From the sequence record OL615011: a stretch of DNA of 64,000 nucleotides; one strand, written 5' to 3'. Below are positions 4,403-64,000 of the stretch, in pieces. The first letter of the stretch is position 1. Each line of letters begins with the position of its first letter. Source of the DNA: Shigella phage vB_SboS_Gloob. The notes below the pieces were generated by a model that worked only from the letters and a program-made list of their open reading frames with translations, did no database searches and was not told the DNA's origin. The position numbers were made by a program, and so were the translations under genes.

Positions 4403-4708
4403 ATGTTAACCACTGATGTCTACTTCAAATATGCGCGACAGACGTATGGCTCGCATCGTGTGACAGACAAATTCTTGATAGACTCCTTCCAGTTTGAAGG
4501 GGAGATGAGGGAATACTCACACAAACAATTCCCACCCCGTGAAGTTCATGGTGACCAGTTCGTGAAATTGTTCTGTCGCTGCGGCGGTTGTGACTTCACA
4601 GATGATGGGTATGCAATGCACGTATACTGCTGCAATTGCTGTGGTAAATACATAACAGTCTATAGGAGAACCAATCATGGCGAAGAAACCCGAAACCAAG
4701 AAAGTTGA
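4403..4708 (+). CDS. hypothetical Cys-rich protein
   Basis: 101-aa ORF with CRCGGC...CCNCCG cysteine cluster; overlaps next gene start. Confidence 0.4.
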   Translation: MLTTDVYFKYARQTYGSHRVTDKFLIDSFQFEGEMREYSHKQFPPREVHGDQFVKLFCRCGGCDFTDDGYAMHVYCCNCCGKYITVYRRTNHGEETRNQES

Positions 4709-5102
4709 AACCGCAACTACAGCCCCCGTTGATGACATCCAGGCGAAGGAGGAAGGTGTGTTACCCACCTACCTGCAACGCGCTGTGGACAACATGCCTA
4801 CAGGCGGGGATGGAGGCGTCGTCTACGCTGGCGGGTACGGTTGGGTGTGCGAATACCGAGACGGCACCAAAGAACTCCTTCAGGAGCTTCCAGGGCTGGC
4901 GTCCACGCTGAAGCGTTATGGTCGCGACAAGTATGGCAAGCCGTTTGAGAAGGGCGCTGTCGTCTCCACCAACATTACAGCAGATACTCTGAACCTTCTG
5001 GGTGTGGACGACCTGAAGCTGCTGGCTGAACCTTTGGGTATCACAGTAGAAGATCGCATTACGTTGATTGCTCAACTGATCGAAAAATTGCAGATTAAAT
5101 AA
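4677..5102 (+). CDS. hypothetical protein
   Basis: 141-aa ORF preceded by AGGAGA ribosome-binding site. Confidence 0.6.
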   Translation: MAKKPETKKVETATTAPVDDIQAKEEGVLPTYLQRAVDNMPTGGDGGVVYAGGYGWVCEYRDGTKELLQELPGLASTLKRYGRDKYGKPFEKGAVVSTNITADTLNLLGVDDLKLLAEPLGITVEDRITLIAQLIEKLQIK

Positions 5103-5131: not shown

Positions 5132-5524
5132 ATGGTTATCGTTGACGAAAGCAATCTGATAGAGTATGCCCTGAGGCATTACATTGTTGATTCTATCTCA
5201 CGGGATGAGTTGCTGACAGACATACAGCGAATTTCGCTAATTAACCAATCATTGAAGAGATTTGTGCCTGGCAAGAGTCCAAGGCTCATATTGAATCAGC
5301 TGATCACTCTCTTCAATACGTTCGAAGCAGAAGCAGTCTGTCGTATGCTTGTGTTGAAAACGGATAAGTCTCAGCTTCCGCGCCTCAAGGCTGCTTTGTT
5401 GACGTTAGGCGTATGGCGTGATGATTTATGTTCCGGTTCATACGAACCAGATAACGAGCTATTAATGGCTCTGAACAACGATTTGGGCGAGTGGAGGAAA
5501 CCATGCCAACAATCACTGTATTAG
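5132..5524 (+). CDS. hypothetical protein
   Basis: 130-aa ORF, no clear RBS. Confidence 0.4.
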   Translation: MVIVDESNLIEYALRHYIVDSISRDELLTDIQRISLINQSLKRFVPGKSPRLILNQLITLFNTFEAEAVCRMLVLKTDKSQLPRLKAALLTLGVWRDDLCSGSYEPDNELLMALNNDLGEWRKPCQQSLY

Positions 5525-6312
5525 TAGCACCGGAAGTTGTTCGCAACAAACCGGAAACCGAGCGTCTGCACACCGTGACAGGCACTGCCAAGGGTTGGGA
5601 AAAGACCAGTCTTAACCAAGACCCTGACGAGATCCTGACCGAGTGTAAAGGCCTGGATACACTTCTGACCAAGAGCAATCTGCAGGCTGATGGCGTGACC
5701 AAAGTTGATCCAACCAAGCCTATCGGCTTCGAGATCTCTTACGAAATCCACGACCCAAGCGCCGTGCTGACCACTGGCCTGACCATCACCCCTGCGACTG
5801 CTGGTGGTGAAGTCGGTCAGGTTGTTGAACTGCTGGCGACCGTCGCTCCGGCGAACGCGACCTACCAGGGTGTCAACTGGTACTCTGGTGACATCACCAA
5901 AGCTGTACACATCGGCGGTGGTAAATTCAAGCTGCTGGCTCCTGGTTCTGTGACTGTGTACGGTGTTACCATCGAAGGTGGCCACACTGACTCTACCGTC
6001 ATCACAGTGGCGGGTGCGCTGGCTCTGTCTACTGATCTGGCTGCTTCTCAGGATGTAACAGCAGGTGAAGACGCAACCTTCACCATCGCTGCTACAGGCG
6101 GCACTACCCCATACACATATGCTTGGTACTTCTCTGATGTCCCTGGTGGTGAAGGTGTGGTGATCGATGCTGGCGCTAACGCCACTGCTGCAACTGCGAG
6201 CCTGGTTATCACCGCAGTTGATGCCGCAGACGAGGGTGAGTACTGGTGTGTTGTTGAAGACGCCGATGGCCACTCTGTGACCTCTACCCGTTGTGAAATG
6301 GCTGTGGTCTAA
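5503..6312 (+). CDS. Ig-like domain protein (Big_2-like plus I-set-like), possible Hoc-like surface protein
   Basis: GGAGGAAACC RBS before ATG 5503; tandem Ig-like segments (YQGVNWYSGD...VTVYGVTIEGG; DATFTIAATGG...DEGEYWCVVEDADG). Confidence 0.6.
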   Translation: MPTITVLVAPEVVRNKPETERLHTVTGTAKGWEKTSLNQDPDEILTECKGLDTLLTKSNLQADGVTKVDPTKPIGFEISYEIHDPSAVLTTGLTITPATAGGEVGQVVELLATVAPANATYQGVNWYSGDITKAVHIGGGKFKLLAPGSVTVYGVTIEGGHTDSTVITVAGALALSTDLAASQDVTAGEDATFTIAATGGTTPYTYAWYFSDVPGGEGVVIDAGANATAATASLVITAVDAADEGEYWCVVEDADGHSVTSTRCEMAVV

Positions 6313-6314
6313 TC

Positions 6315-6545
6315 ATGAAGGGCTTCCAGGACTTTCTTGAAGACTCGGCAGCCCCTGGAACCACGACCGCCGATGTGGGGAAACCCGAAGGCGGTATGGT
6401 GAAAGAGCCTGTCAAGAAACCCAAGGATCTTGAGGAAGAACAAGAGCAGACCGACTTCCAAAAGATCTTTGGGAATATCTTCAAAGACCTCGACCTGAAG
6501 AATGCACGAAGGTGGAACTTCAGGACAGGCAAATATGAAGACTAA
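6315..6545 (+). CDS. small protein with capsid-targeting-sequence-like N-terminus (MKGFQDFLED)
   Basis: N-terminus matches the MKxFQDFLTE paralog family in this window and resembles T4 internal-protein CTS MKTYQEFIAE. Confidence 0.6.
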   Translation: MKGFQDFLEDSAAPGTTTADVGKPEGGMVKEPVKKPKDLEEEQEQTDFQKIFGNIFKDLDLKNARRWNFRTGKYED

Positions 6546-6570
6546 AAGAGGCTCCGGCCTCTTTTTCATT
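6546..6570 (+). terminator. rho-independent terminator
   Basis: agaggctccggcctct hairpin followed by TTTTT. Confidence 0.6.
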
Positions 6571-6633
6571 TCCAGCATTCGGTGTATAATGGACCCGTTC
6601 CCCATGAGCGGAACCTAACTGAGGATACACCAA

Positions 6634-7146
6634 ATGCAATCCATGATCAAACGTAAAGTAGAAATCTCCCTGAATGCCCATGTTGAAATGATCCAGCAGC
6701 TTGTGTCTGACGCATATGAGGTACAAAAGGATCGCCAATCGAAGGGAGGCGTGATGGACCCCACCTGTCCCGGAAACATACTACACTATCGCATGCTGCG
6801 CTGGACTGGGCATACGGCTGCTCTGAAGAAACTGCTTTCTAAAAGATTCCAGGCCGAAAACGATGCCTATGTGTTTGGCGTCTTCCATAATTCGCGTGAA
6901 CGCGATGCGCTCTTCTATCCTTCCCGCAACCCAAAGACAGGCGAAGAACTGCCTATCCCTGATGTCGACAAGGAAGAGAGCACGGCCACCATCGCCCATT
7001 TCATGGGCACGAATATCGATAAAGCAAACATCATCGTGTTCTCTGATACACTTCATGATCCGAAACGCTTGGCTGCCGCCCATGAAATGTTGCGCAATAG
7101 CCGCAGTGCTTTCACAAATTTGACTTTAGTAGTGTTTCTGGGCTAG
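6634..7146 (+). CDS. hypothetical protein
   Basis: 170-aa ORF; TATAAT-like box about 45 nt upstream. Confidence 0.55.
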   Translation: MQSMIKRKVEISLNAHVEMIQQLVSDAYEVQKDRQSKGGVMDPTCPGNILHYRMLRWTGHTAALKKLLSKRFQAENDAYVFGVFHNSRERDALFYPSRNPKTGEELPIPDVDKEESTATIAHFMGTNIDKANIIVFSDTLHDPKRLAAAHEMLRNSRSAFTNLTLVVFLG

Positions 7147-7195
7147 ATAGTTACAGGGGAGGAAACTCCCCTATTTCCCTAACAGGAGGCGCACA

Positions 7196-7393
7196 ATGTA
7201 CAAGTTCAGAATTAACAGAGAACGTAATTCGTTCAAGTTCGGTGTAGTCGCTGGAGTTTGTTTGTTCCTGGCGCTCGAAAGCGTTGTCAGCCTGCTTACA
7301 ACATCACAAATGCAGGTGACTCGTTACCTACTTGCCATTATATTTTCTGCTGTCGGTTTACTCTGCTCCTATTTGGGGTGTGTGAAGAAATAA
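7196..7393 (+). CDS. small membrane protein (two predicted TM helices)
   Basis: AGGAGG RBS; hydrophobic segments VVAGVCLFLALESVV and LLAIIFSAVGLLCSYL. Confidence 0.55.
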   Translation: MYKFRINRERNSFKFGVVAGVCLFLALESVVSLLTTSQMQVTRYLLAIIFSAVGLLCSYLGCVKK

Positions 7394-59867: not shown

Positions 59868-60221
59868 TTACGACAGCTGCTTCAGTTTGTAGATCGTCTG
59901 ATAGCACAGCGTCTTGATTTCATCAAGCGTGTTCTGAAGGTGGGAGTCGCACTGCCTGTAGATGCCATCGACGTCTATCACCACGCTGTTGACATAGGAG
60001 ATAGGGTCTGGGTTATAGAGCTTGATGTTCTCAAACGACGGAACGTACTGGCCACCCGCACCGATGTATGCTTCGGTAAACGTGTCCAGCAAGTCCTCCA
60101 GTTCCCCGTAGAACTCCCCGAGAGCTTTGTGCTTGGCGTAGGACGTTGTAACGAAGTGCAGGGCATGAGAGTGGGCTATAGCAAGCAGTCCACGGTTGAT
60201 GAAAATACTCGCGTTAACCAT
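59868..60221 (-). CDS. hypothetical protein
   Basis: 117-aa ORF. Confidence 0.45.
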   Translation of the reverse strand: MVNASIFINRGLLAIAHSHALHFVTTSYAKHKALGEFYGELEDLLDTFTEAYIGAGGQYVPSFENIKLYNPDPISYVNSVVIDVDGIYRQCDSHLQNTLDEIKTLCYQTIYKLKQLS

Positions 60222-60310: not shown

Positions 60311-60916
60311 ATGAAAACTTTTCAAGACTTTTTGACCGAAGCCGCGCCGCCGATGTCTGTTCATATCAAGGCAGACAAGATCGGCAAGTCCACCGAAGAC
60401 AATATCGGTACTTTCTTGCGAGTTAGTGTTAGTGGCGACAAAGCTACTTTTGAAACCCCAGACGGGCGCAAGATAATCCTGACCAATGCCAAAGACATCA
60501 TTTCCGCATCTGGCCTGAAAGATGGCCAGTTTGCCAGTGCCCAGATGATTGACAAGGTTGATACTGACACCGCTGTCAAGTACAACAAATCAGGCAAATA
60601 TATTGACTTGTTGGATGTCAAATCAGGTATGGGCAATTCCTTTATCTCCATTGACGGTAACAAGCAATGGAAAGAAATGACCGAAGGTGGTTGGTATGCG
60701 TATAAAGGCGGTCGCCCCGGCTTGGCTCGTTATAAGATCGCCATGGTTATGGGACCTCATGCGGGTATGCCATCTCCTGGGGAAGATATTGAATACGAGT
60801 TACCGAATGGCGGCAAAGAACGCGGAACCGTCATGAAACTGAATGGTGCATCCAAGCTGATGGACGTCAAAAACGAAAAAGGTAAGAAAGTACAAGTCAG
60901 TATGTATGTGAAATAA
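60311..60916 (+). CDS. internal-protein-like protein with CTS-like N-terminus (MKTFQDFLTE)
   Basis: N-terminal decapeptide nearly matches T4 capsid targeting sequence; L-x-E cleavage context. Confidence 0.6.
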   Translation: MKTFQDFLTEAAPPMSVHIKADKIGKSTEDNIGTFLRVSVSGDKATFETPDGRKIILTNAKDIISASGLKDGQFASAQMIDKVDTDTAVKYNKSGKYIDLLDVKSGMGNSFISIDGNKQWKEMTEGGWYAYKGGRPGLARYKIAMVMGPHAGMPSPGEDIEYELPNGGKERGTVMKLNGASKLMDVKNEKGKKVQVSMYVK

Positions 60917-62030: not shown

Positions 62031-62038
62031 TATTTATA
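62031..62038 (-). promoter_or_regulatory. T4-type late promoter box TATAAATA (minus strand)
   Basis: exact TATAAATA about 25 nt upstream of ATG at 62005. Confidence 0.45.
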
Positions 62039-62062: not shown

Positions 62063-64000
62063 TCAGATCTTAATCTGCATGTTGCCGCCCAGGGACTGCT
62101 CATACTCACTGTATGCGCTCTCCCCGTCGTCTTTCGCCCACTGGTCAGACTGCTGGGCGCGAGCCAGAGTCATCAGGTTTGGTTCAGTCGGGTTGTAACC
62201 CTTGGACTTCGCATCCTGGTACAGAGTCTGCAGGTACTGGTTGGCGCGGTCAATCTGAGCTTTGAACTCGCGATATGCACCTTCAGTTGTATTGCGGCGG
62301 AAGGTGATATCCCAGTCCACGTTCAGAGTCTGACCATCACGGCTTGCATAGATCTGCCAATCCAGGTCGCGACCTTTTGGAGCGTTGTCGCGGATGGAAC
62401 CAGCGTATGTTGCAAGGTCAACACCAGTCTTCTTAGCAGTATCCGGTTCTTTATCCAGGCGTTCTGTTTCTTTGGACAGGATACCCAACATAAATTCATT
62501 GGTGCGGCGATCCGCCATGTCGTGCCCGCGCCAAAGGACTGAACCGTTGTTGTCAACAAAAATGTCGTCCAAAAATACTTGTTTCGGATTATGTGACGTG
62601 CTGTTCAGAGTTTGCATATTCCGAGATATCATTTCCATTTTAGAAGAAATTTCATCGATCACGGCCTGAACAATATCTTTCTTCAAAGGAAGTTCATATG
62701 TCTTCGGATTGTTCAACAGTCGCCCTTTCTGAGAGATCATCGGCGTGAACGCGACTTTTCCTTTGTCGTAGTAATAGGTCACATTCGTGGTCAATACAGC
62801 ACCATCATACTTCCCAGTTTTCGGGAAATTGACACCAGACCAAGTGATGGACATACCGTTGACAGTCTCACCAAACACCATGGCGTTGCGCGGCATCTTC
62901 AGGGTTCCAGAGTTGACCAGATCAGCGCCCTGGGCATTCAGGTCGATAGAACCATAGATGGTCCCGCTACGATCTTTCAGCATCAGGGTCTTGTCGCCCT
63001 TCTCTGGGATGATTTCCAGCAGGTGCTTGCCGCGCAGAGGCTCTTTGTTGAGTTCCAACAGAGCAGTGTTCCCTGGCTTCACACGATTCAGGACAGCGTC
63101 GGACACTTTCAGAGTCCAGTTTGCGGTTTCCACATAACCCCAGCCCTGAGAATGACGGATGGCCTTGATAGGGTATGGGGCACTCATTGGCACTGCGCTG
63201 ATTTCCCATTCGCCGCGATACTGATGTTCAGCGACGTATGTGATCGTTTCCATGATTTCGTTTGCCACCCGACGAGCATCGCCAGAGATGACACCAGGCT
63301 GAGTTTCGATTTCAGAGAACACGTTGTAGGTCAGATTCTTGCCATCGACTGAATCGAAGCTGACGATGATCACCAGACCACCTTTAGTTTGATAACGCGC
63401 CTGTCCGATCTTCTTAATGCTTTCCCCTGGGAGATAGCTTGCTTTCTGGTCAATGTTGGTATCAATGATACCCAGAACACGAGCGATGAAACCGCTGTCA
63501 CGCAATTGATCGATACTGGTTGCCCCGATTGTGGTGTTGGAGTCAGCTGGCGCGGTCTTCTGCTGAGAACCTTTCCAAAATTTTGTGGACGCCGTGGTGA
63601 AATCATTCAAGATACTGATAGGGACTTGCGGTAATTTCAACTGACGAGCAATGAAATCAGCACTTTGCCCACGCACAGATTTCTCATTCATGTATGCGCC
63701 AACATACACGCCTGGCTCATTGTAGTGGGGAGCGATATTTGCCGTGTTCATGCGGCCTCTCTCCTTACCAACCCATATCAACATGGGTTGATCCCCGTTT
63801 GAAGTTAATTTCCATCCGTTGGAATCATCAACAGAAGATGAAGCCCCCACATCTGGGGTATTGTCTTGAACCGGAACGTCACCGACCTTGTCTGGGTCAT
63901 CCCAGGTGATACCCTGCATCTTCGGACCGTCGAATACCTGAGCAGGATCTTTGCCCTTACGGACCAACCACACATAACCACGGTCGGGGACGGGCGCATA
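62063..64000 (-). CDS. large hypothetical protein, 5' end beyond window
   Basis: reading frame stays open to position 64000 (track start at 63973 is an internal GTG); more than 645 aa. Confidence 0.6.
   Translation of the reverse strand, partial: YAPVPDRGYVWLVRKGKDPAQVFDGPKMQGITWDDPDKVGDVPVQDNTPDVGASSSVDDSNGWKLTSNGDQPMLIWVGKERGRMNTANIAPHYNEPGVYVGAYMNEKSVRGQSADFIARQLKLPQVPISILNDFTTASTKFWKGSQQKTAPADSNTTIGATSIDQLRDSGFIARVLGIIDTNIDQKASYLPGESIKKIGQARYQTKGGLVIIVSFDSVDGKNLTYNVFSEIETQPGVISGDARRVANEIMETITYVAEHQYRGEWEISAVPMSAPYPIKAIRHSQGWGYVETANWTLKVSDAVLNRVKPGNTALLELNKEPLRGKHLLEIIPEKGDKTLMLKDRSGTIYGSIDLNAQGADLVNSGTLKMPRNAMVFGETVNGMSITWSGVNFPKTGKYDGAVLTTNVTYYYDKGKVAFTPMISQKGRLLNNPKTYELPLKKDIVQAVIDEISSKMEMISRNMQTLNSTSHNPKQVFLDDIFVDNNGSVLWRGHDMADRRTNEFMLGILSKETERLDKEPDTAKKTGVDLATYAGSIRDNAPKGRDLDWQIYASRDGQTLNVDWDITFRRNTTEGAYREFKAQIDRANQYLQTLYQDAKSKGYNPTEPNLMTLARAQQSDQWAKDDGESAYSEYEQSLGGNMQIKI

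Follow-up and report, generated by a model that had tools for sequence, protein, structure and literature searches.

The 64,000-nucleotide stretch of Shigella phage vB_SboS_Gloob DNA analyzed here (sequence record OL615011; called the window below) contains a 76-codon open reading frame (ORF) directly behind an Ig-like gene, and the product of this ORF begins like the capsid-targeting sequence (CTS) of the T4 internal proteins. The locus raises the question of whether such a product is directed to the phage head and, if it is, in what capacity. The initial annotation had proposed a small internal head protein. On the evidence presented below, head targeting of some kind, be it as an accessory or as a stable internal protein, appears probable. 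That the 76-aa protein is a head-core-targeted prohead accessory, transient or of low abundance, and not a basic, DNA-associated, injected internal protein, is a proposal to which we give an even chance. The features on which the argument draws are collected in Table 1.

Table 1. Features of the window that bear on the 76-aa gene
Feature	Coordinates	Strand	Evidence or remark
TAAATA box	4645..4650	+	32 nt before ORF 4677; 'putative late promoter' according to the LIMEstone1 annotation
Second TAAATA box	5096..5101	+	36 nt before ORF 5132; precedes the Ig/small gene pair
Ig-like capsid-decoration-type gene	5503..6312	+	Pfam Ig_3, Big_2; phrog_215 'structural protein with Ig domain'; alternative GTG start 5491
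Small CDS, 76 aa	6315..6545	+	ORF list; starts MKGFQDFLEDSAAP
Leader MKGFQDFLED, codons 1-10	6315..6344	+	T4-CTS-like; F4 and F7; E9-D10 replaces x-E10
Invariant core TTTADVGKPEGGMVKEP, residues 16-32	6360..6410	+	Alignments; A-P-A-x5-VGKPxGG in distant relatives
L39-E40-E41	6429..6437	+	Motif scan; sole internal L/I-x-E match; candidate second cleavage site
C-terminal conserved segment FQKIFGNIFKDLDL...WNFRTGKY	6456..6542	+	Alignment; short predicted helix and hairpin
Intrinsic terminator	6544..6571	+	9-bp stem AAAAGAGGC-UCCG-GCCUCUUUU, then UCAUUU; closes the transcription unit
Leader gene MKTFQDFLTE-AAPP, 201 aa, basic	60311..60916	+	Leader scan
Leader gene MKGFQDFLTE-VKQ, 160 aa	60945..61427	-	C-terminal 67 aa match 79-aa Ag3 gp094 / Sajous1 gp216
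Leader gene MKPFLQYFKE-QAAQ, 189 aa	61436..62005	-	Core gene; relatives' product is a proven virion protein
Exact T4-type late promoter box TATAAATA	62031..62038	-	Upstream of the 189-aa leader gene
Candidate S77 protease substrate peptides			MKGFQDFLEDSAAPG, MKTFQDFLTEAAPP, KDLEEEQEQ

Conservation and setting of the small gene

The 76-aa ORF is a real gene under purifying selection and belongs to the core of the ViI-like (Ackermannviridae) phages. The window is part of an Agtrevirus genome with about 98% identity to Shigella phage Ag3; its positions 5400 to 7200 align with Ag3 and close relatives at 97.9 to 99.5% identity, with matches in 269 Ackermannviridae records. Gene order and coordinates around the ORF are identical in Ag3, where the counterpart is gp007 (YP_003358494); this gene, LIMEstone1 ORF007 and Vi01_007 are all annotated as hypothetical or uncharacterized. 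A tblastn search detected the gene, at 60 to 100% identity, in 279 Ackermannviridae phage records, nearly all labeled 'hypothetical protein', from phages of Salmonella, Klebsiella, Escherichia, Dickeya, Serratia, Shigella, Enterobacter and Yersinia. Comparisons with Ag3, LIMEstone1, Vi01 and Sajous1 gave pN/pS values of 0.09 to 0.12, with pS reaching 0.69. The protein matches the unnamed PHROGs family phrog_4805 (E 5e-47), and profile searches against Pfam, NCBIfam and PDB returned no match.

Conservation is concentrated in a few segments. Residues M1, K2, F4, E9, D10, S11, T16 to M28, P32, F56 and G72 are invariant among 23 cluster representatives of the family. A hidden Markov model (HMM) search with the family against 1.84 billion representatives yielded only 12 matches, 11 of them small proteins of 46 to 87 aa; the odd one is a 1,432-aa repeat protein that aligns over profile positions 11 to 25 only. 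In distant relatives from the full HMM search (P0036-P0043), which have 41 to 61% identity, the leader is kept and is followed by [ST]-x-A-P-A and then VGKPxGG, and an F..IFGNIF segment is usually present. With the leader removed, the product had been expected to retain about 65 residues rich in Lys and Glu. Both the length (66 to 67 residues) and the Lys/Glu richness stand, but with 12 K+R to 13 or 14 D+E this remainder is net acidic, with a pI of about 5.1 to 5.4. AlphaFold2, supplied with the 23-sequence alignment, returned a mostly disordered model (mean pLDDT 59, pTM 0.19) with short helices at residues 5 to 9 and 47 to 52 and the highest pLDDT (65 to 75) in the C-terminal 20 residues. 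Neither a fold nor an enzymatic domain is predicted.

In PDB, the upstream Ig-like protein best matches the N4 32-kDa decoration protein and T5 pb10; it possesses an N-terminal domain of its own of about 90 aa, and its relatives were found in virions as LIMEstone1 ORF006 (Hoc-like, 4 peptides) and Sajous1 gp83 (43 spectra). Its TAA stop codon occupies 6310-6312 and the ATG of the small ORF lies at 6315, confirming the 2-nt gap and the extent of the ORF (6315-6545) recorded by the initial annotation. The small gene is the next one after the Ig-like gene in each of five divergent lineages; the two are 2 nt apart or overlap by 1 nt, and the order is rIIB, DUF7440 protein, DUF7207 protein, Big_2/Ig-like protein, small protein, histone-like protein, and the adjacency extends to relatives with only 41 to 61% identity. 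This rII/histone-like/topoisomerase part of the genome is outside the head module. No Shine-Dalgarno sequence precedes position 6315, while each of the three sister leader genes described below has one; translational coupling of the small ORF to the Ig-like gene is therefore likely, and its translation would probably occur by re-initiation after the Ig-like stop codon. We rejected a frameshift fusion of the two genes as unlikely: the -1 frame is the one invariably used by the small ORF, but in four lineages this frame is open for only 6 to 19 codons before the ATG.

The ORF is also followed by a terminator, as had been noted from the sequence: the hairpin at 6544-6571 has a predicted folding energy of -15.6 kcal/mol (z = -2.4 versus shuffles). 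It was found by RNA folding and was missed by a simple terminator scan; the same scan detected no terminator-like site on the + strand between the TAAATA box at 5096-5101 and position 6544. The small protein would be made together with the Ig-like decoration protein from one transcription unit. The two TAAATA boxes resemble the late -10 boxes of LIMEstone1 structural genes, about 20 of which are annotated, but the hexamer is expected some 30 times by chance in the window. Exact matches to the T4-type late box TATAAATA occur twice in the window versus 0.48 expected, and none lies upstream of the Ig/small gene pair. On its own, the hexamer is weak evidence for late expression of the 76-aa gene.

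This tight pairing would also fit an alternative in which the 76-aa protein is a partner of the Ig-like decoration protein, acting in a 1:1 pair, for instance as a chaperone, anchor or regulator when that protein is mounted on the capsid, and the likeness of its leader to the CTS is ancestral or incidental. The conserved junction in every lineage examined, distant relatives included, the missing Shine-Dalgarno sequence and the confirmed presence in virions of the decoration-type neighbor all agree with such a partnership. However, the known Ig-like decoration proteins T4 Hoc, T5 pb10 and N4 gp17 attach to capsids by their own domains, and the protein encoded here has its own N-terminal domain of about 90 aa. 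Furthermore, a leader specialized for the prohead interior is hard to square with decoration of the outside, and the 76-aa protein was not found alongside the Ig-like protein in virions. We consider a dedicated partner of the decoration protein quite unlikely.

The leader peptide and its sister genes

The six frames of the whole window contain 939 ATG-initiated ORFs of 40 aa or more, and we scored the N terminus of each for seven features: K2, an aromatic residue at position 4, a Q/K-type residue at 5, an acidic residue or Q at 6, an aromatic residue at 7, L/I/F/M at 8 and an acidic residue at 10. Exactly four ORFs (6315+, 60311+, 61427- and 62005-) displayed all seven and none displayed five or six, in agreement with the initial description of this gene as the fourth with a CTS-like leader. 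Residues 1 to 8 are identical in the 6315 and 61427 ORFs. The initial annotation had further proposed a nucleotide alignment to test for leader duplication, and the alignment did not support one: the four leaders have 17 to 22 of 30 nt in common, the neighboring 30-nt blocks on each side only 3 to 12, and the mismatches within the leader fall mostly at third codon positions. Similarity that is confined to the 30-nt leader and spares the encoded residues argues for selection on the peptide, and the unrelated flanks speak against a recent duplication at the DNA level, which we rejected.

Within the 76-aa family, the leader residues M1, K2 and F4 never vary, and F7 reaches 90% conservation or more; since these residues are also kept in the distant relatives, the N terminus itself is likely to be functional. 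The pattern extends well beyond this family. An exact-pattern DNA scan of IMG/VR for MKxFQDF[LF]xE returned 25 sites, all 25 at the starts of ORFs (48 to 201 aa) and all on phage contigs, with GC contents of 32 to 55% (loci L030-L054). Judged by these sequences, the MKxFQDF-type leader is widespread in the T4 superfamily, where it would tag many unrelated small proteins of uncultured phages.

In T4, the first ten residues of IPIII are enough for incorporation into the head; the aromatic residues at positions 4 and 7 carry targeting, and positions 8 and 10 also have roles (PMC9026906). The T4 record (NC_000866) gives MKTYQEFIAE as the start of IPII and IPIII and MKTFKEF... as that of IPI. Both targeting determinants, the aromatic positions 4 and 7, are present in MKGFQDFLED. 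The unusual feature of this leader is its Asp10, which is invariant in the Ackermannviridae members: positions 8 to 10 read L-E-D and do not match L/I-x-E, the motif of the T4 prohead protease (PMC9026906). In T4, Asp at position 10 of the leader inhibited processing and did not block targeting (PMC9026906).

How the leader end would be processed can be approached by comparison. It reads LEDGS in LIMEstone1 ORF007 and FLE-S, FLNE-S or FLEE-T in the distant relatives of the 76-aa protein. The alternative motif F7-L8-E9 would place Phe at P3, as does Y-F-K-E in a sister leader, and the Ag3 major capsid protein contains, near residue 50, NLGE-SDAPGS, which resembles LED-SAAPG of the 76-aa protein. 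Three outcomes are possible: cleavage after E9, cleavage after D10, which would leave S-A-A-P much like the S-D-A-P of the capsid protein, or no cleavage. A second cut may occur at L39-E40-E41, whose three residues are each conserved at 90% or more among family members.

The three sister genes, clustered near the end of the window, differ in distribution and composition. The 60311 gene was found in only 14 phage records of about 280 related ones (Escherichia, Shigella, Salmonella and Klebsiella phages). On this sequence survey, such a patchy distribution is typical of variable cargo, and the 76-aa and 189-aa genes are core. The products of 60311 and 61427 have pI values of about 9.2 to 9.3. 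In the 61427 gene, the leader is followed by an insert of about 81 aa and a 67-aa C-terminal domain that corresponds to nearly the entire 79-aa Ag3 gp094, LIMEstone1 ORF079 or Sajous1 gp216; the insert carries AEKLKLPPIPGDLLKAF, which resembles ARQLKLPQVPISILNDF in the neighboring large protein. Modules in this gene appear to have been shuffled directly behind the leader.

Two other ORFs border the cluster. A 636-aa ORF (62063-64000, - strand), still open at the end of the window (...YAPVPDRGYVWLVRKGKDPAQVFDG), represents the C-terminal part of a protein like the approximately 795-aa Sajous1 gp214. Genes of this type are annotated as split by frameshifts in Ag3 (gp098, gp097 and gp096) and LIMEstone1 (ORF082 and ORF081), and the split could be real, stem from an error in sequencing or mark a programmed frameshift. 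On the other side, 59868-60221 (- strand) encodes a DUF5856/Dps-like protein ('starvation-inducible regulator'), whose homologues LIMEstone1 ORF078 and Sajous1 gp217 are present in purified virions and lack a leader.

Head machinery and virion proteins of related phages

The machinery that would recognize such a leader is encoded by Ag3 outside the 64-kb window. Its head module comprises a portal, a 55-aa gp67-like protein (gp162), a 101-aa gp68-like protein (gp161), a prohead protease (PF03420 Peptidase_S77, E 2e-30) and a scaffold (PF25623 T4_CASP, E 5e-43) with 13 [LI]xE sites. No Ackermannviridae capsid is present in PDB, and the best match of the major capsid protein there is T4 gp23. Given this T4-type head module, a T4-type tag in these phages is unsurprising; at the level of sequence, the 76-aa gene and its sisters show that the head-targeting tag of T4 operates, or is at least conserved, in Ackermannviridae.

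Within the same module, the gp68-like protein (NC_013693.1 105568-105873; L006 7569-7874) has F-A-D-F-L at residues 9 to 13, echoing F-x-D-F-L of the leader. The two may represent a shared scaffold-binding motif.

Two published virion proteomes allowed us to follow leader-bearing proteins into particles. For LIMEstone1, in which gel slices were analyzed and proteins under 8 kDa can be lost, the annotation flags structural proteins confirmed by mass spectrometry (MS). A strict leader scan of about 147 of its 152 kb identified ORF007 (77 aa), ORF079 (79 aa), ORF080 (189 aa), ORF167 (61 aa) and ORF173 (152 aa); ORF082 (163 aa, MSKPSFLQFMQE), an offset variant missed by the strict pattern, was spotted by eye in the translation. 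All three leader proteins longer than 150 aa (ORF080, ORF082 and ORF173) are MS-confirmed in virions, and none of the three small ones (ORF007, ORF079 and ORF167) was confirmed in the gel slices. For Sajous1, CsCl-purified virions were digested with trypsin in solution and analyzed by LC-MS/MS. Here, the leader proteins gp214 (196 spectra), gp215 (189 aa; 32 spectra) and gp216 (79 aa, leader MKGFPDFLKE; 20 spectra) were all detected; gp214, a 795-aa protein with a leader-like MAIPSFLNFLEE followed by SK, ranks in the top five virion proteins by abundance. Other leader-bearing proteins of Ackermannviridae phages thus end up in virions.

One of these proteins has a recognizable domain: LIMEstone1 ORF173 (HE600015.1 135190-135648; L009 23191-23649), a virion protein that begins MKTFLQYLQE-SEHP, matches ART-PolyVal (PF18760, E 5e-12).

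The 76-aa family itself is unreported in either virion list, that is, as LIMEstone1 ORF007 (Table 2 of that proteome) or Sajous1 gp82 (Table 6). Small size alone does not explain the missing gp82, since the 55-aa gp67-like gp153 was detected in Sajous1 virions (2 spectra), and a gp82-type protein is expected to give good tryptic peptides (IFGNIFK, DLEEESGFK and DLDLSK). The proteome papers on Ag3, CBA120 and PD10.3 leave the 76-aa gene unmentioned or analyzed only major gel bands.

These data bear directly on the small internal head protein proposed by the initial annotation. Spelled out, such a reading would have the leader target the protein to the core, the protease remove 9 or 10 residues, and a stable product of about 7.5 kDa reside with the DNA and be ejected into the host like T4 IPI and IPII. 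The parts of this reading that hold are the T4-type leader, the machinery and the sister proteins in virions: all of the leader and machinery evidence applies to it, a leader protein of nearly equal size (gp216) is present in Sajous1 particles, and a product below 8 kDa could have been lost from the LIMEstone1 gel slices. Other parts fit poorly. The in-solution Sajous1 proteome lists gp83, gp216 and even gp153 but not gp82, despite its suitable peptides. The product is acidic and predicted to be disordered, unlike the basic products of 60311 and 61427 and the basic T4 internal proteins; its gene is core, unlike variable arms-race cargo; and Asp10 speaks against normal processing. A stable internal head protein is, in our judgment, unlikely.

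Absence from the LIMEstone1 and Sajous1 virions is also what would be seen if the 76-aa protein stayed in the cytoplasm, for instance as a regulator or host-directed factor, its leader having been acquired by module shuffling and no longer serving as a targeting tag. The location of the gene in the rII/histone-like/topoisomerase part, away from the head module, and a position 10 that deviates from all other leaders would be in keeping with this. In contrast, M1, F4 and K2/F7 are retained at 90% or more through the family and in its distant relatives, which would not be expected of a leader that has lost its role; all other tested carriers of the motif are virion proteins; and the gene is in a transcription unit with a structural gene. 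There is, we think, only a small chance that the protein is cytoplasmic.

We favor the proposal that the 76-aa protein is a prohead accessory brought to the head core by its leader. A transient or low-abundance role is suggested by the combination of an acidic, largely disordered product with universal conservation and with absence from the protein lists of two virion preparations; its mean pLDDT of 59 and its conserved internal L-E-E also agree with such a role. From the sequence, the match to the T4 CTS at the targeting positions, the bimodal distribution of the leader motif (4 of 939 ORFs, with nothing intermediate), the signs of selection on the leader peptide, the purifying selection and the conserved place of the gene after the decoration gene, with TAAATA boxes upstream and a terminator downstream, would all be consistent with it. 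By analogy with T4, so would the scaffold and protease of Ag3 and the leader-bearing virion proteins of LIMEstone1 and Sajous1. On the other hand, absence from the virion lists fits a non-head protein equally well, and the L-E-D leader end with its Asp10 makes cleavage uncertain. Ag3 gp162 and gp161 are already positional homologues of the T4 small core proteins; with gp67- and gp68-type genes present in the head module, the 76-aa protein would be an extra component. It also counts against an accessory role that the gp67-like gp153 was detected in Sajous1 virions, and that late expression is read from weak hexamer matches.

In the model that follows from this proposal, the 76-aa protein would behave much like the small processed T4 core proteins gp67 and gp68. 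During prohead construction, its leader would dock via Phe4 and Phe7 on the gp22-type scaffolding core. The S77 prohead protease would remove the leader by a cut after E9 or after D10, ahead of S-A-A-P, with a possible further cut at L39-E40-E41; alternatively, the protease may be unable to cut the leader, owing to Asp10. The latter case admits a further idea, drawn by analogy with the T4 position 10 variant, in which the leader is a naturally uncleavable or slowly cleaved targeting peptide and the protein is a regulator, not cargo. Made in a fixed ratio with the decoration protein, it might fill leader-binding sites on the scaffold or engage the prohead protease, and so set the amount of tagged cargo loaded or time maturation. 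We regard such a regulator as very improbable; if true, it would represent a new role for a CTS-type tag.

Comparison with known systems

These observations offer a lead to the function of a core gene that is 'hypothetical' in nearly all of its approximately 279 records, in a family that has found wide application in the biocontrol and detection of Salmonella, E. coli O157, Shigella, Klebsiella and Dickeya. Literature linking capsid-targeting sequences to Ackermannviridae was not found in the library searched, and internal or prohead proteins are not discussed in the review of the family. The nearest points of comparison are in T4.

The T4 proteins gp67 and gp68 are small head-assembly proteins that are fragmented by the prohead protease (PMC9026906). 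The 76-aa protein resembles them in its size, its conserved internal L-E-E and its morphogenetic-gene-like conservation. Its single conserved L-E-E site and its non-detection in virions would be compatible with fragmentation by the protease and loss of most of the product from the head, but are no proof of either. It differs in that it has no homology to gp67 or gp68, its gene sits beside rII and the Ig-like gene and not between those for portal and protease, and it carries an MKxF..F leader, which gp67 and gp68 lack. Orthology to gp67 or gp68 was rejected, since profile matches are absent and separate homologues of 55 and 101 aa are present in the Ag3 head module.

T4 Alt, an ADP-ribosyltransferase carried in the head and injected, has a parallel in LIMEstone1 ORF173, a leader-tagged ADP-ribosyltransferase found in virions, which shows that the leader marks enzymes for packaging in this family of phages; the 76-aa protein, in contrast to both, has neither an enzymatic domain nor a predicted fold. 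The T4 hoc-inh pair likewise places a decoration gene next to a gene for a small or minor head-related protein, in this case an inhibitor of gp21. We did not retain this analogy, since T4 Inh is a 226-aa protein that has no leader and no similarity to the 76-aa protein.

The closest comparison is with the CTS-bearing internal proteins of T4. Their MK-x-[YF]-x-[ED]-F-[IL] leader with aromatic positions 4 and 7, their small size, the gp22-type scaffold and the gp21-type S77 protease all have counterparts here, and the sister leader genes give rise to virion proteins. Outside the leader, however, the 76-aa protein has no similarity to them. The T4 internal proteins are basic, folded and hypervariable, while the 76-aa protein is acidic (pI of about 5.0 to 5.4), disordered and encoded by a family-wide core gene; its family is undetected in LIMEstone1 and Sajous1 virions, and an invariant Asp takes the place of Glu at position 10. 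As is practiced with T4, the tag could serve to bring foreign proteins into Ackermannviridae phages, and its Asp10 variant provides a natural test case for separating targeting from cleavage.
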